NCBI GenBank assembly: GCA_045542775.1
Contig: JAZQLR010000023.1
Span: 1-33,756 of the forward strand
Direction of reading: 5' to 3'
Source: Clostridia bacterium
Lineage (GTDB): Bacteria; Bacillota; Clostridia; Monoglobales; Monoglobaceae
DNA: 33,756 nucleotides
Part shown: positions 2,898 through 31,306 of the stretch, piece after piece
Numbering within the stretch: position 1 is the stretch's first letter
Layout of the letters: each line of letters starts with the position of its first letter
Translations under genes and position numbers: made by a program
The notes under the pieces: model-generated
What the model saw: the letters and a program-made list of their open reading frames with translations, nothing else
Told to the model about the DNA's origin: nothing
Databases searched by the model: none

Positions 2898-3666
2898 TAC
2901 TTTGCTCCAACATCTTAACCTTATTTAAGTAATTCAGCGTTGAAAAGTCGCGGTCCAGCTGAGCTTTAAGGTACTCCTCGCTGACGCGGCTTAAATAACT
3001 AACCGTCTTTTCTCCGGCTTCAAACGAAAAAATCTGCCGGCTGTCGGCGGATGTGATATATTCAATCAGCTTGACCATCGTCGGTGTAACCTTTGCCACT
3101 CCGGCTTTTCCGCTGCCGCAAGCCTCACAAAATGCCGTACCTGTCGCAAACGAAAGATATGCCGCATCACCGCTTCCGCAACCCTCACACTCCGAAACCA
3201 AAGGTGCATATCCCGCCTCTGCCGCAAGCCGCCATTCAAAAACGGTCTTTATTTTTTCGTACGGACATAGTCCTTTGTCAAGCGCATACAGCGTGTTTAA
3301 AAGAAGCCGCAAGATATTCTCGTCGGGCGCGTCCTCTGTTGTTGCGGCAGTTGCCGCCTCGGCAAAATACGAGGCGTATGCCATCTTATCAAGGTCATAC
3401 CGAAGCGACGAAAAGCTCTCTAAAACCGACATCTCGTTGAGGTTATAAAGACCCTTTTTACTCTTTGCCTTATACATAACAATCTCGCTGTATGCAAACA
3501 GCTGAAGCCCTGCAAGCATCTGCGACTTTTTTGTTCTTACGCTGTTTGCAATTGCGGAAATCTTGCCAAAATCCTTGGTCAGCACGGTGACAATCAGGCT
3601 TGTTTCACCGTACTTGGTGGTTTTGGTCACAATCCCCGAGGTTTTTATCAATCCCAAAATCCTCAC
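2887..3666 (-). CDS. recO: DNA repair protein RecO
   Basis: N-terminal OB-fold-like GIVTKTTKYGETSLIVTVLTKDFGKISAIA, a Cys4 zinc motif (CEGCGS...CEAC), and its position after era-yqzL as in Bacillus. The exact start is uncertain because it overlaps the yqzL-like ORF. Confidence 0.85.
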   Translation of the reverse strand: MRILGLIKTSGIVTKTTKYGETSLIVTVLTKDFGKISAIANSVRTKKSQMLAGLQLFAYSEIVMYKAKSKKGLYNLNEMSVLESFSSLRYDLDKMAYASYFAEAATAATTEDAPDENILRLLLNTLYALDKGLCPYEKIKTVFEWRLAAEAGYAPLVSECEGCGSGDAAYLSFATGTAFCEACGSGKAGVAKVTPTMVKLIEYITSADSRQIFSFEAGEKTVSYLSRVSEEYLKAQLDRDFSTLNYLNKVKMLEQSNEE

Positions 3667-3775
3667 CGGCCTCGACTTTCATTTTCTCTTCACAAAACAG
3701 CTTGAATTTGAGGTAGCTATACACACTCCCCGTATTTTCAAAAGCTGCCCACAGTATATCTTTATATTCACGCAT
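3605..3775 (-). CDS. yqzL: YqzL-like small protein (56 aa), absent from the ORF track
   Basis: aaacGGAGGattaaatcaATG precedes MREYKDILWAAFENTGSVYSYLKFKLFCEEK... The W..F..TG.....YL.FK pattern and the era-recO intergenic position match the YqzL family. The C-terminal third overlaps the annotated recO start. Confidence 0.55.
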   Translation of the reverse strand: MREYKDILWAAFENTGSVYSYLKFKLFCEEKMKVEAGEDFGIDKNLGDCDQNHQVR

Positions 3776-3865
3776 TGATTTAATCCTCCGTTTATCTGAT
3801 ACTTTTAGTATTGAAAGAAGATTAAATGTATATGCTGTTACTTTTTACCACGGTCACCAAAAATT

Positions 3866-4750
3866 TTATTCAAAACCAATAGTGTTCATAAAGGCTTCCT
3901 TATTCCGCCAGTCCTCCTTGACCTTTACCCAAAGCTCAAGGTACACCTTTGTGCCTAAGAACCTTTCAATATCCTGCCTTGCACGGCTGCCTATATCCTT
4001 GAGCTTTTCGCCCTTTCTGCCTATAATAATCGCCTTATGGCTCTGGCGTTCGCAGTAAATAGCCGCCAAAATCTCGTATGTGCCGTTGTCACGCTTTTTC
4101 ATTTTTTCAATCTCTACGGCAATTCCGTGGGGTATCTCCTGATTGAGCAAACGGAGTGCCTTTTCACGGATATATTCCGCCGCAATCTGGCGTTCCGGCT
4201 GGTCGGTTATCAAATCACCGGGGAAGAACTGCGGGCCCTCGTCAAGATGATTTTTGATTTCCTCAACAAGTGCGTCTACATTATCGCCCATCTTTGCCGA
4301 AAGGGGAACTATCCCTGCGAAGTCATATAGCTTAGTCAGCTTGTCAATCACGGGGAGAAGTGCCACCTTTTCAACCGTGTCTGCCTTGTTGACAACCAGA
4401 ATTACCGGAATATCCGACTTTTTGAGTCCCTCAAGAGCAATCCGCTCCTTTTCATACTCGTTCTCGTAAAGGTTGCAGTCAACAACATACAAAAGAACAT
4501 CCACATCCTGAGTTGCGGTGTAGATATATTTTTCCATTTTCTGACCCAATTTGTTATGCGGCTTGTGAATACCGGGCGTGTCGATAAGAACAATCTGACA
4601 ATCCTCGGTGGTATGAACCCCCATAATTTTTGTTCGGGTGGTCTGGGGCTTGTTTGAAACAATAGCCACCTTTTCACCTATAATCCTATTCATAAGTGTT
4701 GACTTGCCGGCATTTGGTCTGCCACAAATCGCAACAAAGCCTGATTTCAT
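3866..4750 (-). CDS. era: GTPase Era
   Basis: G1 motif GRPNAGKST, DTPG, NKAD, and a C-terminal KH domain (IIIGRKGEKLKDIG). Confidence 0.95.
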   Translation of the reverse strand: MKSGFVAICGRPNAGKSTLMNRIIGEKVAIVSNKPQTTRTKIMGVHTTEDCQIVLIDTPGIHKPHNKLGQKMEKYIYTATQDVDVLLYVVDCNLYENEYEKERIALEGLKKSDIPVILVVNKADTVEKVALLPVIDKLTKLYDFAGIVPLSAKMGDNVDALVEEIKNHLDEGPQFFPGDLITDQPERQIAAEYIREKALRLLNQEIPHGIAVEIEKMKKRDNGTYEILAAIYCERQSHKAIIIGRKGEKLKDIGSRARQDIERFLGTKVYLELWVKVKEDWRNKEAFMNTIGFE

Positions 4751-4776: not shown

Positions 4777-5262
4777 CTATCTCTCTAAATTCATTTCCTT
4801 TAAAATTTCCTTTTGGTAGCCGAACATTTCCTCCTCGTCATCGGGGGTCTCGTGGTCATACCCCAAAAGGTGCAGCATTGAATGAACCGTAAGGAATCCC
4901 ACCTCACGCTCAAACGAATGTCCGTACTCCTCTGCCTGCTCTGCAGCACGCTCAAGGGAAATTACAATGTCACCAAGAACCATTTCGCCGTTTGGGTTAA
5001 AATCCATATACTCCTCAATCACATAGCCTTCGTCGTCATATTCAATCAAAGGAAACGACAAAACATCGGTGGCACGGTCAATACTGCGGTGTTCACGATT
5101 AAGCTCACGGATTTCCTCATTATCGGTGAACATAACGCTTATCTCCACCTTTGTTCCGAACTCCATATATTCAAGCGAAGCCTTTGCCGCACTCCGCACC
5201 AAATCCCGAAGCTCCTTTGTAACCTTGAACTTTTTCTGATTATTTCTTATCGCTATTTTCAT
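4777..5262 (-). CDS. ybeY: rRNA maturation endoribonuclease YbeY
   Basis: Zinc motif HSMLHLLGYDH; position between phoH and era. Confidence 0.93.
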   Translation of the reverse strand: MKIAIRNNQKKFKVTKELRDLVRSAAKASLEYMEFGTKVEISVMFTDNEEIRELNREHRSIDRATDVLSFPLIEYDDEGYVIEEYMDFNPNGEMVLGDIVISLERAAEQAEEYGHSFEREVGFLTVHSMLHLLGYDHETPDDEEEMFGYQKEILKEMNLER

Positions 5263-6253
5263 ATCTCTTTTTGCCTCTGTTATTTTTTTCGCTTATCCGT
5301 TCACGCTCAATGGTCTTTTTCTCGTATGCCTTAACAATCTGCTGTACCAGCGGATGCCTTACAACATCCTTTTCGCTTAGGTACATAAATTCAATACCCT
5401 CAACACCCTTGAGAACAATCTCTGCATCACGCAGACCCGACTTTTTGTTGGAGGGCAAATCTATCTGGGTTATGTCACCCGTAACAACTATCTTTGACGA
5501 AAATCCCATACGGGTGAGGAACATCTTCATCTGCTCGGGCGTGGTGTTCTGCGCTTCGTCTAAGATAATAAACGCATCGTCAAGAGTTCTGCCGCGCATA
5601 TAGGCAAGGGGTGCAACCTCGATAAGTCCCCGTTCAATATTCTTGTGGAACGATTCGCCGCCCAGCATATCGCCAAGGGCATCATAGAGCGGTCTTAAAT
5701 ACGGGTCAACCTTGTCCTGCATATCCCCCGGCAGAAAGCCCAACGACTCGCCGGCCTCAACCGCAGGTCGGGTGAGAATAATCTTGTTAACCTCTTTATT
5801 TTTAAACGCCTTAACCGCCATAGCCACCGCAAGATAGGTTTTACCCGTTCCGGCAGGGCCTATACCAAAGACGATGGGGTTCTTCTCGATAGCGGTGATA
5901 TAGCTCCGCTGACCAAGAGTCTTTGCACGAATGGGCATTCCCCTTGAAGTTATGCAAACGCAGTCCTGACCAAGAGTTTCAAGCTCCTTATCATTGTCCT
6001 CCTCAATCTGGGAGATTACATACCGAACCTCCTGCTCGCCAAGAGCAGTGCCGCCCCGTGCCATACCCATAAGATGCTGAATAACACGAACAGCACGGTC
6101 AACATTATCCGGCTCACCGCCAATTTTGATGTCCGAGCCACGGTTAATCACCGCAACATCGAACTCTTTCTCGATAAGTCTGATATTTTCGTCAAAGCTG
6201 CCGAAAAGGTTAATCAGAACCTCCATTTTTTCAACCTCAATGTGTCGCTCCAT
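5240..6253 (-). CDS. phoH: PhoH-family ATPase (PhoH/YbeZ-like)
   Basis: Walker A GPAGTGKTYLAVA and an N-terminal KH-like region. The track ORF extends to a GTG at 6331, but that extension runs into the family C repeat. I prefer the ATG at 6253 (MERHIEVEK...), which has aggaagga upstream. Confidence 0.9.
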   Translation of the reverse strand: MERHIEVEKMEVLINLFGSFDENIRLIEKEFDVAVINRGSDIKIGGEPDNVDRAVRVIQHLMGMARGGTALGEQEVRYVISQIEEDNDKELETLGQDCVCITSRGMPIRAKTLGQRSYITAIEKNPIVFGIGPAGTGKTYLAVAMAVKAFKNKEVNKIILTRPAVEAGESLGFLPGDMQDKVDPYLRPLYDALGDMLGGESFHKNIERGLIEVAPLAYMRGRTLDDAFIILDEAQNTTPEQMKMFLTRMGFSSKIVVTGDITQIDLPSNKKSGLRDAEIVLKGVEGIEFMYLSEKDVVRHPLVQQIVKAYEKKTIERERISEKNNRGKKRYENSDKK

Positions 6254-11245: not shown

Positions 11246-11671
11246 TTACTCCTCAATAATAATCTTTCTGTAATCGTTGCCCTTTTGGGGGTCTTTCTCT
11301 ATCCTTACATCAATATATCCGCCGGGAAGAACGGTTTCAATATTAACCGCCCACTCGATAAGACAAATTCCGTCGCCGAAGAAGTAGTCGTCCATCCAGT
11401 CGCAGCTGTCTGCACTGACATTTTCGAGGCGGTACGCATCAAAATGATAAACCGTTAAATCACCGCTGTACTCGTTGACCATGGTGAATGTGGGGCTTGA
11501 AACCTCGTCCTCAGGAACGCCAAAAAAACCTGCCACGCCCTTTGTAAACGCAGTTTTACCTGCGCCAAGCTCACCCGAAAGTGCGATTATATCGCCGGGC
11601 TTTAAGGTTTTGGCAAATTCCTTTGCAATCTCCATTGTTTCTGCCGCGCTGCGGCTTTCGTATATCTTCAT
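11246..11671 (-). CDS. tsaE: tRNA t6A37 biosynthesis ATPase TsaE
   Basis: P-loop GELGAGKTAFTKG and SPTFT motif; 141 aa. Confidence 0.92.
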   Translation of the reverse strand: MKIYESRSAAETMEIAKEFAKTLKPGDIIALSGELGAGKTAFTKGVAGFFGVPEDEVSSPTFTMVNEYSGDLTVYHFDAYRLENVSADSCDWMDDYFFGDGICLIEWAVNIETVLPGGYIDVRIEKDPQKGNDYRKIIIEE

Positions 11672-15615: not shown

Positions 15616-15680
15616 TTGCAACGCTCCTTTTAAATTAGTTATTTTTAGTATGCCCGCAAATTGCAAAAATAAATATACTA

Positions 15681-15709
15681 TTTACAAATTACGAAAAATA
15701 TGGTATTAT
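15681..15709 (+). promoter_or_regulatory. Sigma-A type promoter (extended -10) of family B copy 1
   Basis: TTTACA - 17 nt (ending TGg) - TATTAT. Confidence 0.6.
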
Positions 15710-15715
15710 ATTGGT

Positions 15716-15874
15716 TGCCAGATAATTTTTTAAAACGACTATACAAACATGCTTTCTTGCCTTTTGGCAAAAACGCACTGTTTTTTTACGCATGTTTGTA
15801 TGTTGTTAAAATCTTGTCTGGCGACTTGGAGCAGTGCGTTTTTCGGTGTACGGCTCTGCCGTGCACCTTTTTTA
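15716..15874 (+). ncRNA. Candidate structured RNA, family B copy 1 (stand-alone)
   Basis: P1 is GCCAGAUAA..UUUU/AAAA.UUGUCUGGC and P2 is UAUACAAACAUGC/GCAUGUUUGUAUG. There is an apical hairpin UUGCC-UUUU-GGCAA. The long-range pairing is AAAAACGCACUG/CAGUGCGUUUUU, and the terminator is GGUGUACGG-cucu-GCCGUGCACC plus U6. Confidence 0.6.
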
Positions 15875-15927
15875 TTTAATGACGTACTCGCTTTCTCTTG
15901 TCGCTAAACAAATTTCACAAACAGAAA

Positions 15928-15954
15928 TTCCGCCGTTTTTTCGGCGGAGTTTTT
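15928..15954. terminator. Additional hairpin terminator between family B copy 1 and the tRNA promoter
   Basis: ttCCGCCGttttttCGGCGGagttttt. Confidence 0.55.
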
Positions 15955-15985
15955 GTGTATAAAATAAATATTTTTAAATAAAGTC

Positions 15986-16014
15986 TTGATTTTTCAAAGA
16001 AATTGTAGTATACT
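15986..16014 (+). promoter_or_regulatory. Sigma-A type promoter of tRNA-Ser
   Basis: TTGATT - 17 nt - TATACT, ending about 12 nt before the tRNA 5' end. Confidence 0.6.
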
Positions 16015-16025
16015 ATTTTAGTCTC

Positions 16026-16117
16026 GGAGAGGTGGTCGAGATGGTTTAAGGCGCAGCATTGGAAATGCTGTGTACGTTTATAGCGTACCGTGGGTTCGAA
16101 TCCCATCCTCTCCTCCA
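16026..16117 (+). tRNA. tRNA-Ser (anticodon GGA), class II with long variable arm, CCA encoded
   Basis: Acceptor ggagagg/cctctcc, anticodon stem-loop cagca-ttGGAaa-tgctg, variable arm tgtacgtttatagcgtaccg, T-arm gtgggTTCGAATcccat, and 3' tcca. Confidence 0.93.
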
Positions 16118-19931: not shown

Positions 19932-19960
19932 TTGTCATTCTGAACGCAGTGAAGAATCTT
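19932..19960 (+). repeat. Family D short repeat
   Basis: ttgtcattctgaacgcagtgaagaatctt. Confidence 0.8.
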
Positions 19961-19991
19961 TCTTGTCATCACGCAAAATATATAAAACACC

Positions 19992-20021
19992 TTGATTTTT
20001 TTATCAAACCTGTGGTATACT
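19992..20021 (+). promoter_or_regulatory. Sigma-A type promoter (extended -10) of family B copy 2
   Basis: TTGATT - 18 nt (ending TGg) - TATACT. Confidence 0.6.
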
Positions 20022-20027
20022 ATATTT

Positions 20028-20191
20028 GCCAAATCAAATTAATACTTGCTTTATGTGATCAGCTTTTTTGTCTTTCGGCAAAAATGTACTGCTTATTTAA
20101 GCTTGATTGTGTAAAGCATTAGGTTTAATTTGGTTTGGCGACTGAGGGCAGTACATTTTTCGGTGTACGGTTCTGCCGTACACCTTTTTTT
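20028..20191 (+). ncRNA. Candidate structured RNA, family B copy 2 (stand-alone)
   Basis: P1 is GCCAAAUCAAAUUAA/UUAAUUUGGUUUGGC (15 bp) and P2 is UUGCUUUAUGUGAUCAGCUU/AAGCUUGAUUGUGUAAAGCA. The long-range pairing is AAAAAUGUACUG/CAGUACAUUUUU. The terminator is GGUGUACGG-uucu-GCCGUACACC plus U7. Confidence 0.6.
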
Positions 20192-20230
20192 GTGCTTCTC
20201 TCGGAGGTTACCACACACTTGCATCCGGCA

Positions 20231-20266
20231 AAACACCCCGACCATATTGGTCGGGGTGTTTGCCTT
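20231..20266. terminator. Bidirectional hairpin terminator (end of the minus-strand peptidase operon)
   Basis: aaACACCCCGACCatatTGGTCGGGGTGTttgcc, with T-rich sequence on both strands. Confidence 0.7.
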
Positions 20267-20292: not shown

Positions 20293-20447
20293 GGGGATAG
20301 GAAAAATAGGTTCAGAATGAATAAACTGAGCCAAAGCTATGCTTTGGGTTACCCGACGGCGTACTGTGGTGTACGCCGAGCGGCGAAGTTTATTTATAGC
20401 AAAAGGCACAGTTTGCCTTTTGCGCTCTGGACTATTTTAACATCCCC
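20293..20447 (-). repeat. Structured 3'-UTR element, family A (copy A1, overlaps the peptidase stop codon)
   Basis: On the plus strand: GGGGATAGGAAAAATAG...gagCCAAAGCtatGCTTTGGgttaCCCGAcGGCGTACtgtggtGTACGCCGAGCGGcgaag...CTATTTTAACATCCCC. It carries an extra internal hairpin aaaaggcacagtttgcctttt. Confidence 0.75.
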
Positions 20448-20911
20448 TTTATTTTTCTCTTAATATTACCAGCTTTGCCACGCAGTCTTACCCAAATTCT
20501 CCAAATTGGTAGGACAACTTTTACGTACCGAGCGTAGCTTTTGCCACTGCAATCAAGCACCTTGTTTTTCCGGCTGACCGCCGTTAAAATACCGATTATC
20601 CATTCGGGCTTTACGCCGTGTTCAAGAATTCTCTGATTGTCGCCGCATAGAATATAGCCGTTTTTATCCTCGCCCACAATTCGGTGCAGAACAAACTGAC
20701 CGTCGGGTCGGCGATAGAAAATCACCTCGCCCACCTGAGGGGTTTTATCCAATGCTCCAACCGTAACGCTGTCCTTACCCTGACGGATAAGAGGCCGCAT
20801 ACTTATGCCGTGGGGACGAAATGTAACGCTGCCGCCCAGCCTTAGCTTTTCCTCAATAATCGGGAACAGCTCTTCAAGCCGGACTCCCTTTTTGCCTTGC
20901 AAACTACTCAT
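20432..20911 (-). CDS. Soluble signal-peptidase-like serine peptidase (S24/S26 superfamily, SipW/S26B-like Ser-His-Asp boxes)
   Basis: 159 aa with boxes HGISMRPL (nucleophile Ser), FVLHRIVG (His where LepB/LexA types have Lys) and CGDNQ. There is no N-terminal TM segment. The start overlaps the PqqD stop by 8 nt. Confidence 0.75.
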   Translation of the reverse strand: MSSLQGKKGVRLEELFPIIEEKLRLGGSVTFRPHGISMRPLIRQGKDSVTVGALDKTPQVGEVIFYRRPDGQFVLHRIVGEDKNGYILCGDNQRILEHGVKPEWIIGILTAVSRKNKVLDCSGKSYARYVKVVLPIWRIWVRLRGKAGNIKRKIKGMLK

Positions 20912-21170
20912 CTATCAGATTAGCCTCTTTCATTTTATTGATAAATGCCTTAACATCTCTAAGCGCAATATCCTCGGGAGCATCATATTCCGTAAGCAAT
21001 GCCGAAACAAGCTCTGCCTCGGTTGCACCGCCCTCCAGAGTCTTCCACAAAAACGCACCGCTCTCGTTAAGATTAATCATTCCGTTGAAGTCAATCGCAG
21101 CACTTCCAACAGGCACAACAACATTCTGACCTGCCACGCTGCGAAGCATAAATCCTGCCTTGATTTTCAT
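20904..21170 (-). CDS. PqqD-family protein (RiPP recognition element-type peptide chaperone)
   Basis: 88 aa containing ...MINLNESGAFLWKTLEGGATEAELVSALLTEYDAPEDIALRDVKAFINKMKEANLI, which matches the PqqD pattern (LNetg..iW..l.g..t..el...l...y.v.......Dv..fl..l...gli). RBS is GGAGAGG. Confidence 0.8.
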   Translation of the reverse strand: MKIKAGFMLRSVAGQNVVVPVGSAAIDFNGMINLNESGAFLWKTLEGGATEAELVSALLTEYDAPEDIALRDVKAFINKMKEANLIDE

Positions 21171-21195
21171 AAAATCTAAATCCTCTCCGGGCTTC

Positions 21196-21927
21196 TTATC
21201 TGTTCATTCCATTATATGCGGTATACGCCGCATCATCGTCCATATTACAGCCCATTCTGTATACCGTTGTTTGTTGCAAAAGCCGGTCAAGCAAATCAAG
21301 GAGCTTTGACATATTTCTGTTATCCACCGGACGAATTGTCTGATTGAGTATCCCAAACGCCGCATCCTTTGCCAAAATCGGCTCTATCCAGTTTTCCGCT
21401 GACCGTTCAAGGAAGCATATCCCCTGTAAGGGAACACCAATATTCTTATTCTGGTCGGTCTTGCCGCTCCACGGCGTGCCGTAAACCGTAACCTTGCCGT
21501 CCTTAATACGGATAACCGGCTTGTCATCGTTGAGAATATATGTGTTGTCCTCGCCAAACACCTTGCGCCAAAGCGTGGTGTGGGTTGACTTGCCCGTTCC
21601 GCTGGGAGCAGAAAAAAGGTATGCCTTGTTCTCATACACAACCGCAGATGCGTGGAGCATAAATCCGTCAAACTCTAAAAGCTTGCTGCAGAACTGCTCG
21701 CCCGTCCACATATACTCACATTCCAGAGTGGAAAGATGCGGAGCAAATTTCTGCTTTGCCAGAAGGAACTCGTCATCAAGCCCCACCACAATTTCGGGCG
21801 TGCCATCAAATTCGCAAAGGTACTCCTTTGCCTGCTTTTCAATTATTCCGCCTGAGCGGAGAATCATTCCCACATTAACATCGGCAATGGAATACTTACG
21901 CTTGCTGATACCGTCTGCAGAATTCAT
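21196..21927 (-). CDS. HPr-kinase-like P-loop protein (HprK-related kinase family)
   Basis: 243 aa containing GFMLHASAVVYENKAYLFSAPSGTGKSTHTTLW...LNDDKPVIRIKDGKVTVYGTPWSGK. This resembles the HprK/P C-terminal catalytic fold as found in HprK-related kinases of peptide-modification clusters. The start ATG overlaps the SLH gene stop (TAATG). Confidence 0.7.
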   Translation of the reverse strand: MNSADGISKRKYSIADVNVGMILRSGGIIEKQAKEYLCEFDGTPEIVVGLDDEFLLAKQKFAPHLSTLECEYMWTGEQFCSKLLEFDGFMLHASAVVYENKAYLFSAPSGTGKSTHTTLWRKVFGEDNTYILNDDKPVIRIKDGKVTVYGTPWSGKTDQNKNIGVPLQGICFLERSAENWIEPILAKDAAFGILNQTIRPVDNRNMSKLLDLLDRLLQQTTVYRMGCNMDDDAAYTAYNGMNR

Positions 21928-22886
21928 TATTCAGCCGCTCCTGGAAGCATAATGATTGTAGGAATTTCAAAGCTGCTGCCATCGCAGGAGTAAATCTTGC
22001 TTATATTAGCAACATCTCCCGAAACAACAATACCGGGAACAACAGTTGCAATCTCAGTAAATACACCATCAACCGAAACCTTTGTTCCTGCTCTTACAAC
22101 CAGTTTATTGAGGATTTCGGCATTCTTCACTTCAATGTTGCCTTCACCTACACCATCACCGATAACAACCATTTTCTCGGTCACTATATTATTAAGATTC
22201 ACGCCCGGAACTCTTATCATAACATTGCCATCGGTGGGAATTTCTGTCTCGGTATCATCAATATAGTACTTGATGAGTCTGTCCATAACAACCGCAAACT
22301 CTGCACGGGAAATGTTGTTGAGGGGATTGATGTAACCGTCATTGCCTGCAACATAGCCGCTTGCGACAATTGCAGCAACGCCGTTCTTTGCCCAATCATC
22401 AACCTTGTCGCCATCCTTGAACTGGTCAAGAATTGTTGTGTCAACATTGAATGTTGCAAGACCGAAAACTCTTGAAAGAACAAGGAATGCTTCCTGTCTT
22501 GTGATGGGGTTGTTGGGGTTAAGCTTATTGTCAGAACCGGTGAATGCGCCCATTGCAACAGCCTTTGCCATTGACGCATAGAACCAGTCGTCAGGATTAA
22601 CATCTGTAAAACCGGTAATTACCGCTTCCTTAGTTGCGCCGCAGGCACGAGCCATAATTGTTGCCATTTCGGCACGGGTCATATTATCTGACGGCTTGAT
22701 ATATCCACCGCTGCCGCCCAAAAGTCCGTTTTCAACTGCTGCGGTAAGTGCCGCTGTTGACCAGTCGTCGGGCATATCCTTGAAGTCAGCTGCAAATGCA
22801 ACTGTTCCGAGTGAAAGCATAAATACCAAAACCAATGCGAGTATCTTTTTCATAATAAAAATCTTCCTTTCTTTATGTGAATTCAT
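21927..22886 (-). CDS. Secreted S-layer-homology (SLH) domain protein with uncharacterised beta-rich C-terminal domain
   Basis: Signal peptide ...MKKILALVLVFMLSLGTVAFA/ADF. There are three SLH repeats (FKDMPDDWSTAALTAAVENGLL; FTDVNPDDWFYASMAKAVAMGAF; FKDGDKVDDWAKNGVAAIVASGYV). The ATG at 22886 has GGAG 7 nt upstream and lies just downstream of the promoter; an alternative ATG is at 22853. The track start at 22976 lies upstream of the promoter. Confidence 0.85.
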   Translation of the reverse strand: MNSHKERKIFIMKKILALVLVFMLSLGTVAFAADFKDMPDDWSTAALTAAVENGLLGGSGGYIKPSDNMTRAEMATIMARACGATKEAVITGFTDVNPDDWFYASMAKAVAMGAFTGSDNKLNPNNPITRQEAFLVLSRVFGLATFNVDTTILDQFKDGDKVDDWAKNGVAAIVASGYVAGNDGYINPLNNISRAEFAVVMDRLIKYYIDDTETEIPTDGNVMIRVPGVNLNNIVTEKMVVIGDGVGEGNIEVKNAEILNKLVVRAGTKVSVDGVFTEIATVVPGIVVSGDVANISKIYSCDGSSFEIPTIIMLPGAAE

Positions 22887-22907
22887 AGATAACTCCAGTA
22901 TATATTG

Positions 22908-22936
22908 ATTATACTGTATTTTACGAGGTTTTTCAA
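22908..22936 (-). promoter_or_regulatory. Consensus sigma-A promoter of the SLH/kinase/PqqD/peptidase operon
   Basis: Minus strand reads TTGAAA - 17 nt - TATAAT. Confidence 0.65.
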
Positions 22937-22984
22937 TCCTCTTTTTGAAAAATAATAAATTTGTAAGTTTGTACAAAAAATAAC

Positions 22985-23015
22985 AGGATTAGTGGTCAAT
23001 TTGACCGCTAATCCT
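22985..23015. promoter_or_regulatory. 31-bp near-perfect palindrome in the divergent promoter region (candidate operator or hairpin)
   Basis: AGGATTAGTGGTCAA-T-TTGACCGCTAATCCT, two 15-nt arms with one mismatch. Confidence 0.45.
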
Positions 23016-23121
23016 CATTTTTAAAGCAAAATTTGTTATTTTTGATTTTTTAAATTAAGTGTAAATTTCTTAAAACTGTTAATACTAAATATGTAAACTT
23101 TCTCTGGAGGTGAATTTTTTT

Positions 23122-23277
23122 ATGGAAAACAGCGGCGTTAAATGCAATGTTAACGAATGTATGTATCATGCAGAGGGAAACAAGTGTTCTCTTGACACAA
23201 TCGAAGTAAGCCACGAAAAAACAAGTGCTGATTCAATCGCAATTCCCCATTTCTGCAAGAGCTACGAGAAGAAATAA
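23122..23277 (+). CDS. DUF1540-like small cysteine-containing protein (51 aa), absent from the ORF track
   Basis: ctctGGAGGTGaattttttt precedes the ATG. The product is MENSGVKCNVNECMYHAEGNKCSLDTIEVSHEKTSADSIAIPHFCKSYEKK. The C.V..C.Y......C....I.V......C pattern fits DUF1540. A strong terminator follows. Confidence 0.7.
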   Translation: MENSGVKCNVNECMYHAEGNKCSLDTIEVSHEKTSADSIAIPHFCKSYEKK

Positions 23278-23287
23278 CTTCCAAATT

Positions 23288-23316
23288 AAGAGGCTGTTTA
23301 AACAGCCTCTTTTTTC
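23288..23316. terminator. Intrinsic terminator of the DUF1540 gene
   Basis: aAGAGGCTGTTTAAACAGCCTCTtttttc. Confidence 0.85.
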
Positions 23317-23334
23317 TTATATAACGAAATCCAA

Positions 23335-23476
23335 GGGATAGTAAAAATAGATTCAGAATGAATAAACCGAGCCAAAGCTTGTGCTTTGGGTTACCCGAAG
23401 CTGTACTAGGTGTACAGCGAGCGGCGAGGTTTATTTATAGCAAATTTTTTTGCGGTCTGGACTATTTTTACATCCC
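23335..23476 (-). repeat. Structured 3'-UTR element, family A (copy A2, directly after the rseP stop)
   Basis: On the plus strand: GGGATAGTAAAAATAG...gagCCAAAGCttgtGCTTTGGgttaCCCGAaGCTGTACtaggtGTACAGCGAGCGGcgagg...CTATTTTTACATCCC. The GTAC hairpin shows compensatory changes relative to A1. Confidence 0.75.
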
Positions 23477-23481
23477 TCTTT

Positions 23482-24558
23482 TTAAATTCTTGAAATTAGC
23501 CGCATTATATCATTCCATGTCGCAAACACCATAACACCCAGCAAAAGAACCAAACCGATAAAGTGAACAATACCCTCTTTTTCGGGCGGAATGGGTTTTC
23601 TGCGGATTGCCTCAATAATCACAAAGAATATTCTGCCGCCGTCAAGCGCCGGAATGGGCAAAAGATTCATAATTCCTATATTAACCGAAATAAATGACGC
23701 AAGCGACAAAAGCGCAAGGAGACCTGCAAGCATTCCCTTACCCTCTGGCGCAGAGCTTGCCGCATCGTTCACCGCCGAATTCATCGCATCAACCACGCCG
23801 ACAGGTCCGGACATCTCGCCGACACCTACCTCGCCGCTTATCAGCATCCCGAGCGATACAAACACAACCTTTCCCATCCACACTGTCTGGTAAAAGGATT
23901 CCCGTATTACGCTCACTGCACCAGCCTTTTGCATGGTTGTGGTGATGCCCAGCAGATACGCGGGGCTTCCGTCGGTGTACTTTGCCTCAATCGGTTTAAA
24001 GGGAAAGCTCAGCTTTTCGCCGTCACGCTTTACCGTAACCGTACACTCGCCACCATCGTATCTTTGCATTGCAAAGTCAATATCACGCTTGATATTAATT
24101 TTGCTATCGTTTATGGCAACAATTCTGTCACCGGGTTGCAGCTCGCCGTAAAGTGCCGATTGCTCAATGACAGTATCCACGGTGGTTGTGGGAATTCCGC
24201 TGCCCTGATAGAACACCGAAACAAAGATTGTAAAAATCAAAAAGCCTAAGATTATATTCATCGCCGAGCCGGCAGCAAGGATTATAAGCTTCTGCCACCA
24301 CGGCTTTGCGGAGAATGAGCCGGCATCGTCGGATTGTTCGTCCTCGCCCTCCATACTGCAAAAACCGCCCACGGGGATTGCCCTTATGGAGTACTTGGTA
24401 TCACCTTTTCCCTGCCGTGAATAAATCTGAGGACCCATACCGATAGCAAACTCGTGAACCTTAACACGAAACAGCCGTGCCGTGAGAAAGTGACCCAGCT
24501 CGTGAACAAATATTATAAGCGAGAATAAAAGAATTGCAAATACTATTGTCCAAATCAT
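23482..24558 (-). CDS. rseP: RIP (site-2) zinc metalloprotease RseP/RasP
   Basis: HELGH zinc motif in TM1, a central PDZ region, and NLLPIPALDGG. Confidence 0.93.
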   Translation of the reverse strand: MIWTIVFAILLFSLIIFVHELGHFLTARLFRVKVHEFAIGMGPQIYSRQGKGDTKYSIRAIPVGGFCSMEGEDEQSDDAGSFSAKPWWQKLIILAAGSAMNIILGFLIFTIFVSVFYQGSGIPTTTVDTVIEQSALYGELQPGDRIVAINDSKINIKRDIDFAMQRYDGGECTVTVKRDGEKLSFPFKPIEAKYTDGSPAYLLGITTTMQKAGAVSVIRESFYQTVWMGKVVFVSLGMLISGEVGVGEMSGPVGVVDAMNSAVNDAASSAPEGKGMLAGLLALLSLASFISVNIGIMNLLPIPALDGGRIFFVIIEAIRRKPIPPEKEGIVHFIGLVLLLGVMVFATWNDIMRLISRI

Positions 24559-30735: not shown

Positions 30736-30811
30736 AGATTCTTCACTTCGTTCAGAATGACACTTCATTCTGATTCACTTATTGTCATTCTGAGGCATAG
30801 CCGAAGAATCT
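30736..30811. repeat. Inverted pair of family D repeats (potential long hairpin)
   Basis: agattcttcacttcgttcagaatgaca (30736-30762) is the reverse complement type of attgtcattctgaggcatagccgaagaatct (30781-30811). Confidence 0.75.
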
Positions 30812-30914
30812 AAAAAAATTATCACAATTTGAGATAACTCATTGACAAGTATTTAGACAAGAATTATAATAGCTTTGCGCTGCTCCGATTGTCGCCAGCA
30901 AATCCATAGGCACA

Positions 30915-30945: not shown

Positions 30946-30956
30946 TGCTTTTAAGT

Positions 30957-31306
30957 TATGCGGCAGACCTGTAAGCCGAGTTCTGTCTTTTAAGACGGTC
31001 ATCTATCTAAACCGCATATCACTATGCGGCTCAAGCCACCTTCTCGAAAGATGCCGGGCCAGCTTAGCCTTTCATTCAGGTGTTGCTCCGGATGGGGTTT
31101 ACAGCAAGGGTCAGTCGCCAGACCCCGAGTGAGCTCTTACCTCACTTTTCCACCCTTACCTGCAAAAAATACAGGCGGTATATTTCTGTTGCACTTTCCT
31201 TAAAGTTGCCTTCACAAGGTGTTACCTTGCACCCTGCCCTGTGGAGCTCGGACTTTCCTCACGCACAGGATTACTCCTTGTACCCGCGACCGTCCAGTCT
31301 GCCGAG
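30957..31306 (-). ncRNA. rnpB: RNase P RNA, bacterial type A
   Basis: Minus strand contains GAGGAAAGTCCGAGCTCCACAGGGCAG, AGTGCAACAGAAATATACCGCC, GGTAAGGGTGGAAAAGTGAGGTAAGAGCTCAC, GTAAACCCCATCCGGAGCAA and ACAGAACTCGGCTTACAGGTCTGCCG. P1 pairs CGGCAGAC.. at both ends. Boundaries are good to about 10 nt. Confidence 0.92.

Follow-up and report, generated by a model that had tools for sequence, protein, structure and literature searches.

An uncatalogued family of rod-shaped RNAs in gut and rumen Clostridia, with leader-type members and probable free-standing members

The stretch of DNA analysed here (the window, 33,756 nt of one contig from a Monoglobaceae genome) holds three copies of a unit of about 160 nt, in all of which the same helices can be drawn although their sequences mostly differ. 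This raises the question of whether the unit is a functional RNA or a DNA repeat, and, if it is an RNA, whether copy 1, the focus of this study, is a small RNA in its own right or part of a regulatory leader. Monoglobaceae and Oscillospiraceae are abundant fibre degraders of gut and rumen that are hard to culture, and to our knowledge almost nothing is known about RNA regulation in either of them. The family to which copy 1 belongs controls or adjoins surface-protein genes and a conserved small-protein gene.

Copy 1 and the common fold

The three copies, which lie within 34 kb, were found where an earlier note had placed them, at 15717–15873 (+), 20028–20191 (+) and 1970–1803 (−), and nhmmer profiles of subfamilies A and B detected no further copy in the window. 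As that note had claimed, a good promoter precedes each copy (sigma-70-type with an extended −10, ending 6–7 nt upstream of GCCARAU) and each copy ends at an intrinsic terminator (15845–15867, 20162–20184 and 1831–1808) followed by a T-run. The copy-1 RNA is predicted to be about 157 nt long, its inferred 5′ end being the G of GCCAGAU and its 3′ end the U-run of the terminator, and has an MFE of −62.4 kcal/mol (z −8.1; nhmmer E 8e-28). The features are listed in Table 1.

Table 1. Features of copy 1, its surroundings and the other two copies in the window.
Feature	Position	Strand	Description and basis
Direct repeat AAAATAAATAT, left copy	15666–15676	.	11 bp; alignment with L005
Copy-1 cassette	15677–15960	+	284 bp: promoter, RNA, T1, ~55-nt spacer, T2
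Copy-1 promoter	15681–15709	+	sigma-A-type, TTTACA, 17 nt, TG-n-TATTAT; promoter scan 10/12 matches, extended −10
Copy-1 rod	15717–15822	+	MFE structure and helix parsing
Copy-1 P1	15717–~15735 with ~15805–15822	+	MFE structure, helix parsing; covaries family-wide
Copy-1 P2	15740–15752 with 15790–15802	+	MFE structure, helix parsing
Copy-1 apical hairpin P3	15757–15770	+	MFE structure, helix parsing
Copy-1 long-range helix, 5′ strand AAAAACGCACUG	15769–15780	+	3′ side of apical hairpin
Copy-1 single-stranded linker GAC UUGGAG	15823–15831	+	RAC after P1 conserved in all members
Copy-1 long-range helix, 3′ strand CAGUGCGUUUUU	15832–15843	+	directly 5′ of terminator
Copy-1 intrinsic terminator T1	15845–15873 (hairpin 15845–15867)	+	10-bp stem, 3-nt loop, U6; terminator scan
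Second terminator T2	15929–15954	+	UCCGCCG..CGGCGGA then U5; terminator scan; conserved with L021, L065
Direct repeat AAAATAAATAT, right copy	15961–15971	.	11 bp
tRNA-Ser promoter	15986–16014		
tRNA-Ser gene	16026–16114		
Copy-2 unit	19992–20264	+	promoter 19992–20021, RNA 20028–20191, T1 20162–20184, spacer, second hairpin 20227–20264
Copy 3 (leader type)	1803–2005	−	promoter 2005–1977, RNA 1970–1803, terminator 1831–1808
Copy-3 long-range helix	AAAAACGCAGGCUCC (1916–1902) with GGAGCUGCGUUUUU (1846–1833)	−	
49-aa ORF (MPDYKKMY...)	1633–1782	−	starts 20 nt past copy-3 terminator U-run; GGAGG SD before it

The MFE values of the three copies, −61 to −63 kcal/mol, compare with about −33 to −38 kcal/mol for shuffled sequences (z −7.6 to −8.6), and for each copy none of 200 shuffles folded as well as the native sequence. 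Every copy forms a long imperfect hairpin that contains exactly the P1 and P2 strands listed in the earlier note, followed by a GGCGAC..GGAG linker and the terminator. Per-sequence folding gave the same architecture in all 32 members derived from a search pattern (see below): a rod of about 100 nt that consists of P1 (12–18 bp), an AU-rich asymmetric internal loop, P2 (12–18 bp) and the small apical hairpin P3. A K-turn was looked for in the internal loop, where no conserved tandem G–A motif was seen. The long-range pairing proposed earlier was recovered in all three copies, with a cognate duplex energy of −18.6 to −20.4 kcal/mol; the two strands of copy 1 are complementary at 12/12 positions (−20.4 kcal/mol), and the helix of copy 2 is a U/A variant of that of copy 1. 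Across the family this helix measures 12–16 bp and joins a strand directly 3′ of P3 (A4–6 plus 7–11 variable nucleotides) to a segment directly 5′ of the terminator (7–11 variable nucleotides plus U5–6). Since the linker from P1 to the 3′ long-range segment is only 3–9 nt long, the rod must bend back at the internal loop and bring its apex beside the helix base; we infer this fold-back from the lengths only, and such a geometry would explain why the helices vary in sequence but keep their lengths.

It was also borne out that no ORF follows copy 1 and that a second terminator and then the promoter and gene of tRNA-Ser come next. Folding of the copy-1 tail gave T1 as its sole stable structure, with no antiterminator. 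The reading of the unit as a stand-alone sRNA is the best one for copy 1, because there is neither a downstream ORF nor an alternative to its terminator, but it does not extend to the family, in which about half of the members are 5′ leaders. With a predicted promoter and terminator of its own, copy 1 is probably a free-standing, separately transcribed small RNA. Copy 2 likewise has neither an antiterminator nor a downstream ORF; its unit is identical in L005 and L006, and its second hairpin is kept in L017 and L040. Both copies, which carry a terminator only, are best read as constitutively terminated sRNAs.

Covariation, conservation and movement of the unit

About 45 further members were collected from MAGs of Monoglobaceae, Oscillospiraceae and Acutalibacteraceae, i.e., gut and rumen Clostridia, most of them with a search pattern that fixes GCCARAU, UYUGGCGAC and UUUUUCG. 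Exact-protein look-ups for HPr and O-acetylhomoserine sulfhydrylase returned no record, and related loci were reached via homologues instead. A scan of JGI metagenomes yielded 40 matches, 3 of them real, which is too few for gene statistics, and a first DNA pattern run on viral contigs gave 4 matches, all of them chance matches in GC-rich coding sequence. When full-length members were aligned with MAFFT and analysed with RNAalifold, only the helix base and the terminator were recovered, the rods being too variable; per-sequence folding and register-anchored mini-alignments were used in place of the full-length alignment.

The covariation claimed from the three copies was put to a statistical test in 30 distinct members, using 500 shuffles and taking the first 12 bp each of P1 and of the long-range helix. 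In this test 95.0% of the cells were paired versus 76.4% after shuffling, and the covariation score was 0.487 versus 0.133, with 0/500 shuffles as high; conservation at P1 positions 1–7 and in the U-run is set by the search pattern for most members and hence overstated, so that the real evidence in P1 comes from positions 8–12 and from the members found independently of the pattern. Double changes occur at sixteen pairs of the two helices in these 30 members, and slid registers gave a pairing of just 33–50%. Divergent sequences still match: AAAAGGUGUUUCUCUC pairs with GAGAGAACACUUUU in L026 and L069, AAAAAAUGUGUU-CCUCG pairs with CGAGGcAACGCGUUUUUU in unit 4 of L046, and the members of subfamily B (L082, L083 and L089) have very different, yet still matching, pseudoknot sequences. 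The conservation of GCCARAU/GGCGAC that was reported from the three copies holds for one variant but is not universal in the family, for the helix base itself covaries (GCGACAU/GUGUCGC, ACCACAAC/GUUGUGGU and GGCAAAC/GUUUGCC); what remains is the single-stranded RAC after P1. Conservation at the nucleotide level is confined to the helix base, GGYAAAA, RAC and the U-run, and the spacing from promoter to GCCA is identical in all 32 aligned members. The folded strand is the transcribed one: its mean energy is −61.7 kcal/mol versus −42.0 kcal/mol for the reverse complement, the forward strand being better in 32/32 members, and the helices are rich in G–U pairs, with a U–G at P1 position 7 in 29/30 members. 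The compensatory changes, the abundant G–U pairs and this strand asymmetry vindicate the view that the unit is a functional RNA fold rather than a plain DNA repeat.

The second terminator, which the earlier note had taken for a separate feature, turned out to be part of the same conserved cassette of 284 bp as copy 1. A close syntenic relative, L005, has a single copy of the 11-bp repeat at the same HPr/tRNA-Ser site and is without the 295 bp between the repeats, a comparison that covers this one empty site. In L021 and L065, copy-1-like units occupy another locus, and the homology with them, which runs from ACTATTTACAAAT to GGCGGAGTTTTTGT, has the same boundaries as the cassette defined by the comparison with L005. 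At the locus orthologous to that of copy 3, relatives have a member of another subfamily, and the flanks on either side of it are nearly identical. The cassette indel and this swap suggest movement of entire regulatory RNA modules from locus to locus, which would matter for the evolution of regulatory networks in gut bacteria.

A primarily DNA-level element, such as a MITE-like transposable cassette, or a site of recombination like an integron attC or the end of an IS200/IS605-type element, would account for several of these observations, namely the clean presence or absence of 295 bp, the direct repeat that resembles a target-site duplication, the coinciding boundaries of cassette and homology, the replaced RNA body at an orthologous locus and the tandem arrays in L046, L057, L069 and L018, which reach four units in tandem (L046 has four family units). 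In addition, GCCAAAT..GTTTGGC is loosely like the R″/R′ boxes of attC, whose consensus is RYYYAAC/GTTRRRY. However, we regard such an element as very unlikely, given the G–U-rich helices, the complement that folds about 20 kcal/mol worse, and the promoter and terminator that bracket every unit on the same strand. Inspection of the cassette ends revealed no terminal inverted repeats, BLAST of the cassette against phage and plasmid collections gave no match, and no integrase or transposase family was matched among the selected window ORFs scanned. An attC site in particular was rejected, for P1 is an uninterrupted helix of 12–18 bp and has none of the hallmarks of attC, namely a 7-bp R box, an unpaired spacer, an L box and extrahelical bases, and GTTRRRY is matched by neither GTTTGGC nor GTCTGGC. 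Mobility of the cassette does not preclude a function of the RNA; the two can coexist.

Leader-type members and a predicted transcription switch

Approximately half of the members, including copy 3, end 18–30 nt before an SD and a start codon, and this distance from the U-run to the ORF leaves no space for a second promoter. For the 49-aa protein encoded behind copy 3, loci were fetched via its homologues, and in 8/8 of them a family RNA lies directly upstream of the ORF; this small-ORF family had no match at a meaningful score in Pfam, NCBIfam or PHROG. The tails of leader-type members have a second folding option, in which the 3′ strand of the long-range helix captures the 5′ half of the terminator together with its loop. 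The resulting antiterminator matches the terminator in stability or exceeds it by 1–5 kcal/mol. In copy 3 the tail MFE is this antiterminator (−16.0 versus −14.9 kcal/mol for the terminator), as it is in L019, L024, L033, L037, L039, L048, L051, L060, L079 and L080, and in 0 of the copy-1- and copy-2-like members. An automated tally gave a ratio of antiterminator to terminator of 13:3 in ORF-linked versus 7:16 in unlinked members (Fisher p = 0.003), with exceptions on both sides: the terminator remains the tail MFE in ORF-linked L037 (in a 64-nt test), L082 and L089, and unlinked L060 and L048 have an antiterminator. The GGAG/GAG of leader-type members can likewise pair with either the apex or the terminator loop. 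A leader peptide in the tail was considered and rejected, since the segment covaries as part of a helix and the NUG that follows GGAG is not kept across members (copy 2 has GUA).

Because the 3′ strand can build an antiterminator, the role that best fits the long-range pairing is that of anti-antiterminator in an attenuation switch. The features of a terminator-type attenuator are present in leader-type members, copy 3 among them, and absent from copies 1 and 2, and the ORF-linked members look like on/off transcription switches. In the OFF state the pseudoknot would form, the terminator would then form and transcription would stop; in the ON state the apex strand would be held elsewhere, by P3 or by a ligand, a protein or an RNA, so that the antiterminator would form and allow read-through into the gene. 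Sequestration of the apex strand in the nascent transcript was also modelled, and it did not separate leader-type from sRNA-type members. The downstream genes form a mixed set, coding for small acidic helical proteins, CHAP/RicinB/Fn3 proteins, BspA-LRR surface proteins, a PIN7 protein and membrane proteins, and therefore point to no coherent physiological signal. If the switch is real, its architecture, in which a rod folds back and its apex joins the terminator flank in a pseudoknot that serves as anti-antiterminator, would be new to Rfam, and the regulator would be an orphan.

It is conceivable, though rather unlikely in our estimate, that nothing is switched and that the unit is a constitutive structured 5′ module, e.g., a stabiliser, an insulator or a strong promoter with a leaky terminator, the antiterminators being by-products of GGAG/UUCG-rich tails. 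The absence of a functional theme among the downstream genes would fit this, as would the lack of invariant junction nucleotides of the ligand-pocket type outside the helix base, GGYAAAA and the U-run, and the not fully clean classification into leaders and sRNAs. However, a 3′ segment that is complementary to both the apex and the 5′ half of the terminator occurs in leader-type members only, where the antiterminator gains its 1–5 kcal/mol, the association with ORF linkage is significant, and a stabiliser would hardly account for a covarying pseudoknot of 12–16 bp that abuts the terminator.

For copy 1 itself, the reading that we favour, with a probability of roughly 0.6, is an independent RNA gene of about 157 nt, predicted to be constitutively terminated, in a family whose leaders would use the pseudoknot as an anti-antiterminator. 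Having neither an antiterminator nor an ORF, copy 1 cannot regulate in cis. It would be released as a stable, pseudoknot-locked sRNA, and its most likely role would be to act in trans, competing for the factor or RNA strand that controls the leader-type members or serving as its decoy, this last being the weakest step of the proposal.

The same features of copy 1, i.e., the lack of an ORF and an antiterminator, could alternatively mark an orphaned and decaying leader that has lost its gene and its antiterminator and is functionless in cis and in trans, all the more as the entire cassette is dispensable in a close relative and the family clearly includes cis-acting leaders. We consider this unlikely. 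The units of L021 and L065 at the other locus keep promoter, rod, pseudoknot, T1 and T2 via compensatory changes, at least nine MAGs conserve terminator-only units like copy 2, whose promoters are intact and whose second hairpin is preserved, and the copy-1 pseudoknot is perfect; these conserved units and this pseudoknot therefore argue for purifying selection rather than decay.

A more far-reaching proposal goes beyond the independent RNA gene and is offered tentatively, at odds well below even. It holds that the family may be a new class of signal-responsive riboregulator, with a hinged fold-back rod as the sensor of a ligand, protein or RNA input, on an exchangeable promoter–sensor–terminator cassette that is duplicated, inserted and swapped, and with terminator-only copies that act in trans on the leaders via shared strands or a shared factor. 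Action via shared pseudoknot strands is supported by computed energies, the copy-1 tail pairing with the apex strand of copy 2 at −19.1 kcal/mol and with that of copy 3 at −19.9 kcal/mol, about equal to the −20.4 kcal/mol with its own. Leader-type copies beside terminator-only copies would provide a natural system for the transition from a cis-regulator to a trans-acting sRNA.

Comparison with known RNA families

The Rfam scan that had been proposed for the element, 6S RNA included, was run, and no Rfam 15 family matches it. At the gathering threshold the window yielded RNase P and tRNA-Ser only, and 18 member-carrying loci yielded only RNase P, 6S, tRNAs and 5S, none of which overlaps the element; scans of copies 1 and 3 in E-value mode, with E up to 10, returned noise only. 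No published description of the family was found in full-text literature searches, although unnamed candidates in large-scale microbiome screens could include it. The family is thus absent from Rfam 15 and uncatalogued.

It seems to us scarcely credible that the family belongs to a known class (6S, T-box, c-di-GMP riboswitch or PyrR attenuator) as a divergent form which covariance models miss, even though the rod resembles 6S RNA and Stem I of the T-box in shape, leaders in multiple copies before surface proteins bring to mind the c-di-GMP-I riboswitches of Clostridia, and there is a weak match to the PyrR model. The latter scores 16 bits versus a gathering score of 54, and pyrimidine or amino-acid genes do not follow the units. 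For 6S RNA (RF00013) there is no model match, the rods have a small asymmetric internal loop instead of a large central bubble, and L046 has a canonical 6S gene (5520–5703, 79 bits) besides its four family units. For the T-box (RF00230) there is no match, no T-box sequence and no specifier loop, and the downstream genes encode surface, PIN7 and small proteins. A type III toxin–antitoxin antitoxin (ToxI-like) was likewise rejected, as these are units of about 160 nt with their own promoters, and the diverse downstream proteins include no ToxN/AbiEii-type match.

A close analogy is with three-structure attenuators, e.g., PyrR-controlled pyr leaders and many terminator-type riboswitch expression platforms, in which the pre-terminator segment also pairs either upstream or with the 5′ half of the terminator, so that upstream pairing decides termination, and in which a promoter-proximal leader is followed by an ORF directly past the U-run. 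In contrast to them, the anti-antiterminator here would be a pseudoknot of 12–16 bp with the apex of a rod of about 100 nt rather than a local hairpin or an aptamer P1, and, unlike PyrR leaders, the family has no PyrR-binding motif and precedes heterogeneous genes. T-box leaders share the long hinged rod before an antiterminator/terminator pair and the many copies per genome with variable helices; however, the family lacks their distal platform as well as the sequence and loop named above, its genes are not aminoacyl-tRNA synthetase or amino-acid genes, and its rod pairs with its own 3′ tail. The c-di-GMP-I (GEMM-I) riboswitches are also multi-copy terminator leaders before surface or secreted proteins, with two side-by-side helices, but their covariance model gave no match at any threshold, and conserved nucleotides and topology differ.

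Sibling sRNAs such as LhrC1–5, Qrr1–5 and the csRNAs resemble the family in that a genome carries several paralogues, at times arranged in tandem, and that every one of them has a promoter and a terminator to itself. Such siblings share a conserved single-stranded seed, whereas in the present family conservation is mostly structural, variable stretches are engaged in base pairs and about half of the members lead ORFs. SreA and SreB are SAM riboswitches that act in trans in Listeria, and EutX/Rli55 is an sRNA that sequesters the ANTAR regulator EutV. As in these systems, one architecture occurs here both as a cis leader (copy 3) and as a terminated stand-alone RNA (copies 1 and 2), and the stand-alone form could compete for the same factor; the present family differs in that each of its stand-alone copies has a promoter of its own and terminators in tandem, and in the cassette-like distribution of these copies.

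Fold and covariation of the RNA family

The three copies in the window lie exactly where the earlier note had placed them. Each is preceded by a sigma-70-type promoter with an extended −10, which ends 6-7 nt 5′ of GCCARAU, and closes with an intrinsic terminator, i.e., a G+C-rich hairpin and a U-run. The claimed P1 and P2 helices are found in the fold of all three copies, a long imperfect hairpin followed by a short linker and the terminator, with minimum free energies of −61 to −63 kcal/mol (z −7.6 to −8.6; 0/200 shuffles as good). In the claimed long-range pairing, the strand that follows the apical hairpin (the apex strand) and the segment immediately preceding the terminator are 12/12 complementary in copies 1 and 2, and form 14 bp with one bulge in copy 3. 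No further copies were found in the window using nhmmer profiles of subfamilies A and B.

A scan of 185,579 species genomes with the pattern GCCARAT-N80-110-TYTGGCGAC-N11-16-TTTTTCG yielded 73 loci, of which ~31 are true homologues and the remainder GC-rich chance matches. The hosts of all ~31 are gut/rumen Clostridia MAGs (Monoglobaceae, Oscillospiraceae, Ruminococcaceae, Acutalibacteraceae and "Clostridia bacterium"). Running nhmmer on these loci added extra units, including tandem arrays of four (locus L046) or two (L057, L069, L018). Every tandem unit is complete with its own promoter and terminator, and the terminator-to-next-promoter spacer is conserved within an array. Homologues of the small ORF downstream of copy 3 led to eight more loci, all eight with a family RNA ending ~20 nt before the start codon. 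The 5′ element GCCARAU, although present in the window copies, is not a fixed motif: GCCARAU/UYUGGC is one version of a covarying helix base, which reads GCGACAU/GUGUCGC, ACCACAAC/GUUGUGGU or GGCAAAC/GUUUGCC in independently found members, all of which share only a single-stranded RAC after P1. Subfamily B has a different apex and tail from subfamily A with the design unchanged.

All 32 members derived from the pattern share one rod-like fold, in which an uninterrupted P1 of 12-18 pairs is followed by an AU-rich internal loop (excess on the 5′ strand), P2 of ~12-18 pairs, and a small apical hairpin ending in GGYAAAA. Covariation was tested on a register-anchored alignment of 30 distinct members, taking 12 pairs from the start of both P1 and the long-range helix. 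Standard pairs occupy 95.0% of cells vs. 76.4% after shuffling, with double changes at 16 pairs; the covariation score is 0.487 vs. 0.133 shuffled, a value reached by none of 500 shuffles, and sliding the partner by 1-3 columns lowers pairing to 33-50%. P1 positions 1-7 were preset by the search pattern, so that the signal lies in positions 8-12, the entire long-range helix and the independent members. The long-range helix occurs in wholly different yet complementary versions, e.g., AAAAGGUGUUUCUCUC with GAGAGAACACUUUU. In 32/32 members the transcribed strand folds more stably than the complementary one (mean −61.7 vs. −42.0 kcal/mol), and the helices are G-U-rich, which therefore indicates selection on the promoter-strand RNA rather than DNA palindromy. 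The RNA fold and its covariation, as claimed from the three copies, are real.

Only 3-9 nt link P1 to the pseudoknot strand, whereas on a straight rod the apex would be 30-35 bp away; to form the pseudoknot, the rod would therefore have to bend sharply at the internal loop, which would lay P2 back along P1. The alike and conserved lengths of P1 and P2 would fit such a fold-back geometry.

Leader-type and sRNA-type members

Folding the tail alone, from linker to U-run, divides the family into two types. Leader-type members (L019, L024, L033, L037, L039, L048, L051, L079, L080 and window copy 3, among others) have an SD and start codon within 18-30 nt. In their folded tails, the terminator 5′ strand and loop are taken up by the 3′ strand of the long-range helix, forming a predicted antiterminator whose computed stability exceeds that of the terminator by 1-5 kcal/mol. 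Blocking this 3′ strand in folding, as the pseudoknot would do, lets the terminator form. In sRNA-type members (copies 1 and 2 and L011, L017, L018, L021, L040, L045, L047, L062, L065, L067 and L075), the terminator is the sole stable tail fold, with no antiterminator and no downstream ORF; a second conserved hairpin/terminator follows ~55-65 nt further on. An automated tally of 39 units gave antiterminator:terminator ratios of 13:3 for ORF-linked vs. 7:16 for unlinked units (p = 0.003), several exceptions being failures of the simple SD rule, e.g., L046 unit 4 and L079.

The long-range helix is thus best read as an anti-antiterminator, in which the OFF state would combine pseudoknot and terminator, and the ON state would leave the tail free to form the antiterminator. 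In both subfamilies the apex strand can alternatively sit in the local hairpin P3, plausibly a second switch state. The downstream genes are heterogeneous and give no pointer to the input signal; they encode acidic helical proteins of 42-68 aa, CHAP/RicinB/Fn3 and BspA-LRR/Fn3 secreted proteins, a PIN7 protein, and membrane and unknown proteins. The conserved family of small acidic helical proteins (42-70 aa, MPDYKKMY..L..Q.E.E..Y; in the window, L019, L026, L046 and L082-L089) has no counterpart in Pfam, NCBIfam or PHROG, and a leader-type RNA lies directly 5′ of its gene in every locus seen.

The earlier note had proposed a stand-alone sRNA, which fits copy 1, with its terminator only and no downstream ORF, but misses the cis-regulatory logic of the family and the cassette nature of the unit. 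In computed pairings, the apex strands of copies 2 and 3 suit the copy-1 tail roughly as well as its own apex strand does; for a possible role in trans this is a lead but not evidence.

Cassette, module exchange and neighbouring repeats

The window is ordinary chromosome (rpoD, recO, era, pfk, queT, HPr, O-acetylhomoserine sulfhydrylase, SLH protein, rseP, dxr). Its closest fetched relatives are the fully syntenic ENA contig L005 (13 shared proteins 92-99% identical, O-acetylhomoserine sulfhydrylase 97%) and the MAG "Monoglobaceae bacterium fecal_MAG_412", source of L017 and L082 (Era 99.7%, RpoD 98.9%). The HPr/tRNA-Ser spacer of L005 lacks exactly 295 bp, and AAAATAAATAT flanks these on both sides in the window and occurs once in L005. 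At another locus, 5′ of a GTPase gene whose N-terminus resembles TypA/BipA, L021 and L065 carry copy-1-like units; these match the window from ACTATTTACAAAT (−35 region) up to and including GGCGGAGTTTTTGT (second terminator), the same boundaries as those of the copy-1 cassette. The second terminator, previously taken as the next, separate feature, hence belongs to the copy-1 cassette. With a single empty site compared, a target-site-duplication-like insertion is the more economical explanation, and deletion between the repeats the less likely one. No inverted terminal repeats were seen at the cassette, and phage and plasmid collections gave no match to it.

At the orthologous Fer4/rpoD locus of the window, L082 and L089, the promoter regions are ~95% identical and the SD and small ORF near-identical. 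The RNA body from −10 box to U-run is essentially unalignable, being of subfamily A in the window and B in L082 and L089 (GCGACAU/CACGACA base, apex GGGGUUACGCUAUGCAAAAAGCGUACCUCUG), which suggests that paralogues exchanged or converted this part, once more along module boundaries. In L083, a several-hundred-bp repeat, ending in the hairpin TTAGGGGACAGCGTCCCCTAA just 5′ of the promoter, lies upstream of both RNA-plus-small-ORF modules, suggesting that larger segments may be duplicated along with the module.

A second structured repeat of ~170 nt (84% identity between copies) forms a three-way junction whichever strand is folded (z −3.7 to −4.4), with a compensatory change in one hairpin (GGCGUAC/GUACGCC to GCUGUAC/GUACAGC) and no Rfam match at E values as high as 1. 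Located immediately 3′ of two minus-strand genes and overlapping their last codons, it is probably the other RNA family of the earlier note. One copy is at the junction of the SLH gene and rseP, where L005 carries an additional ~2.6 kb with GH36 alpha-galactosidase and DUF1540 genes, both absent from the window. A minus-strand cluster, whose L005 counterpart has PqqD and ScmC Pfam annotations, adjoins an SLH-domain protein and an unannotated 159-aa protein, is convergent with the copy-2 unit, and could be a small peptide-maturation locus. A short dispersed intergenic repeat, TTGTCATTCTGAGG...GAAGAATCTT, is a potential hairpin.

Positions of features in the window and in homologous loci
Feature	Window	Homologous loci
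Copy 1 RNA	15717-15873 (+)	
Copy 1 promoter	15681-15709 (+)	
Copy 1 long-range helix	15769-15780 with 15832-15843	
Copy 1 terminator	15845-15867	
295 bp lacking in L005 (copy 1 cassette plus one repeat)	15677-15971	
Copy 2 RNA	20028-20191 (+)	
Copy 2 promoter	19992-20021 (+)	
Copy 2 terminator	20162-20184	
Copy 3 RNA	1970-1803 (−)	
Copy 3 promoter	2005-1977 (−)	
Copy 3 terminator	1831-1808 (−)	
Small acidic protein gene	1633-1782 (−)	L046 837-1047
Fer4/rpoD locus	1620-2110 (−)	L082 9690-10160; L089 3680-4140
Tandem arrays		L046 1-820; L057 5887-6239; L018 4886-5174; L069 (−)
L083 repeat		~3660-3790 and 4440-4570 / 4900-5020
Second structured repeat	20294-20476; 23335-23506	
Genes 5′ of second repeat	20432-20911 (−); rseP 23482-24558 (−)	
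PqqD/ScmC cluster	20432-22976 (−)	
Extra-gene site	~22976-23482	L005 14402-17091
Short dispersed repeat	1403-1437; 30782-30816; ~19934-19962	L005 ~11368-11395
tRNA-Ser	16026-16114	
RNase P	30956-31305 (−)	

Comparison with known RNA families

At gathering score, Rfam 15 recognizes only RNase P and tRNA-Ser in the whole window, and permissive scans of copies 1 and 3 returned only noise (at best a microRNA model and, with 16 bits vs. a gathering score of 54, PyrR). Among 18 loci with homologues, one of which additionally contains a canonical 6S gene, no Rfam family overlaps the RNA element, so that the suggested Rfam comparison, 6S included, leaves it matching no Rfam family. Full-text literature searches found no description of the family, which is uncatalogued. 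The description that fits copy 1 best is that of a putative constitutively terminated, pseudoknot-locked sRNA; the other half of its family would act as attenuation-type leaders.
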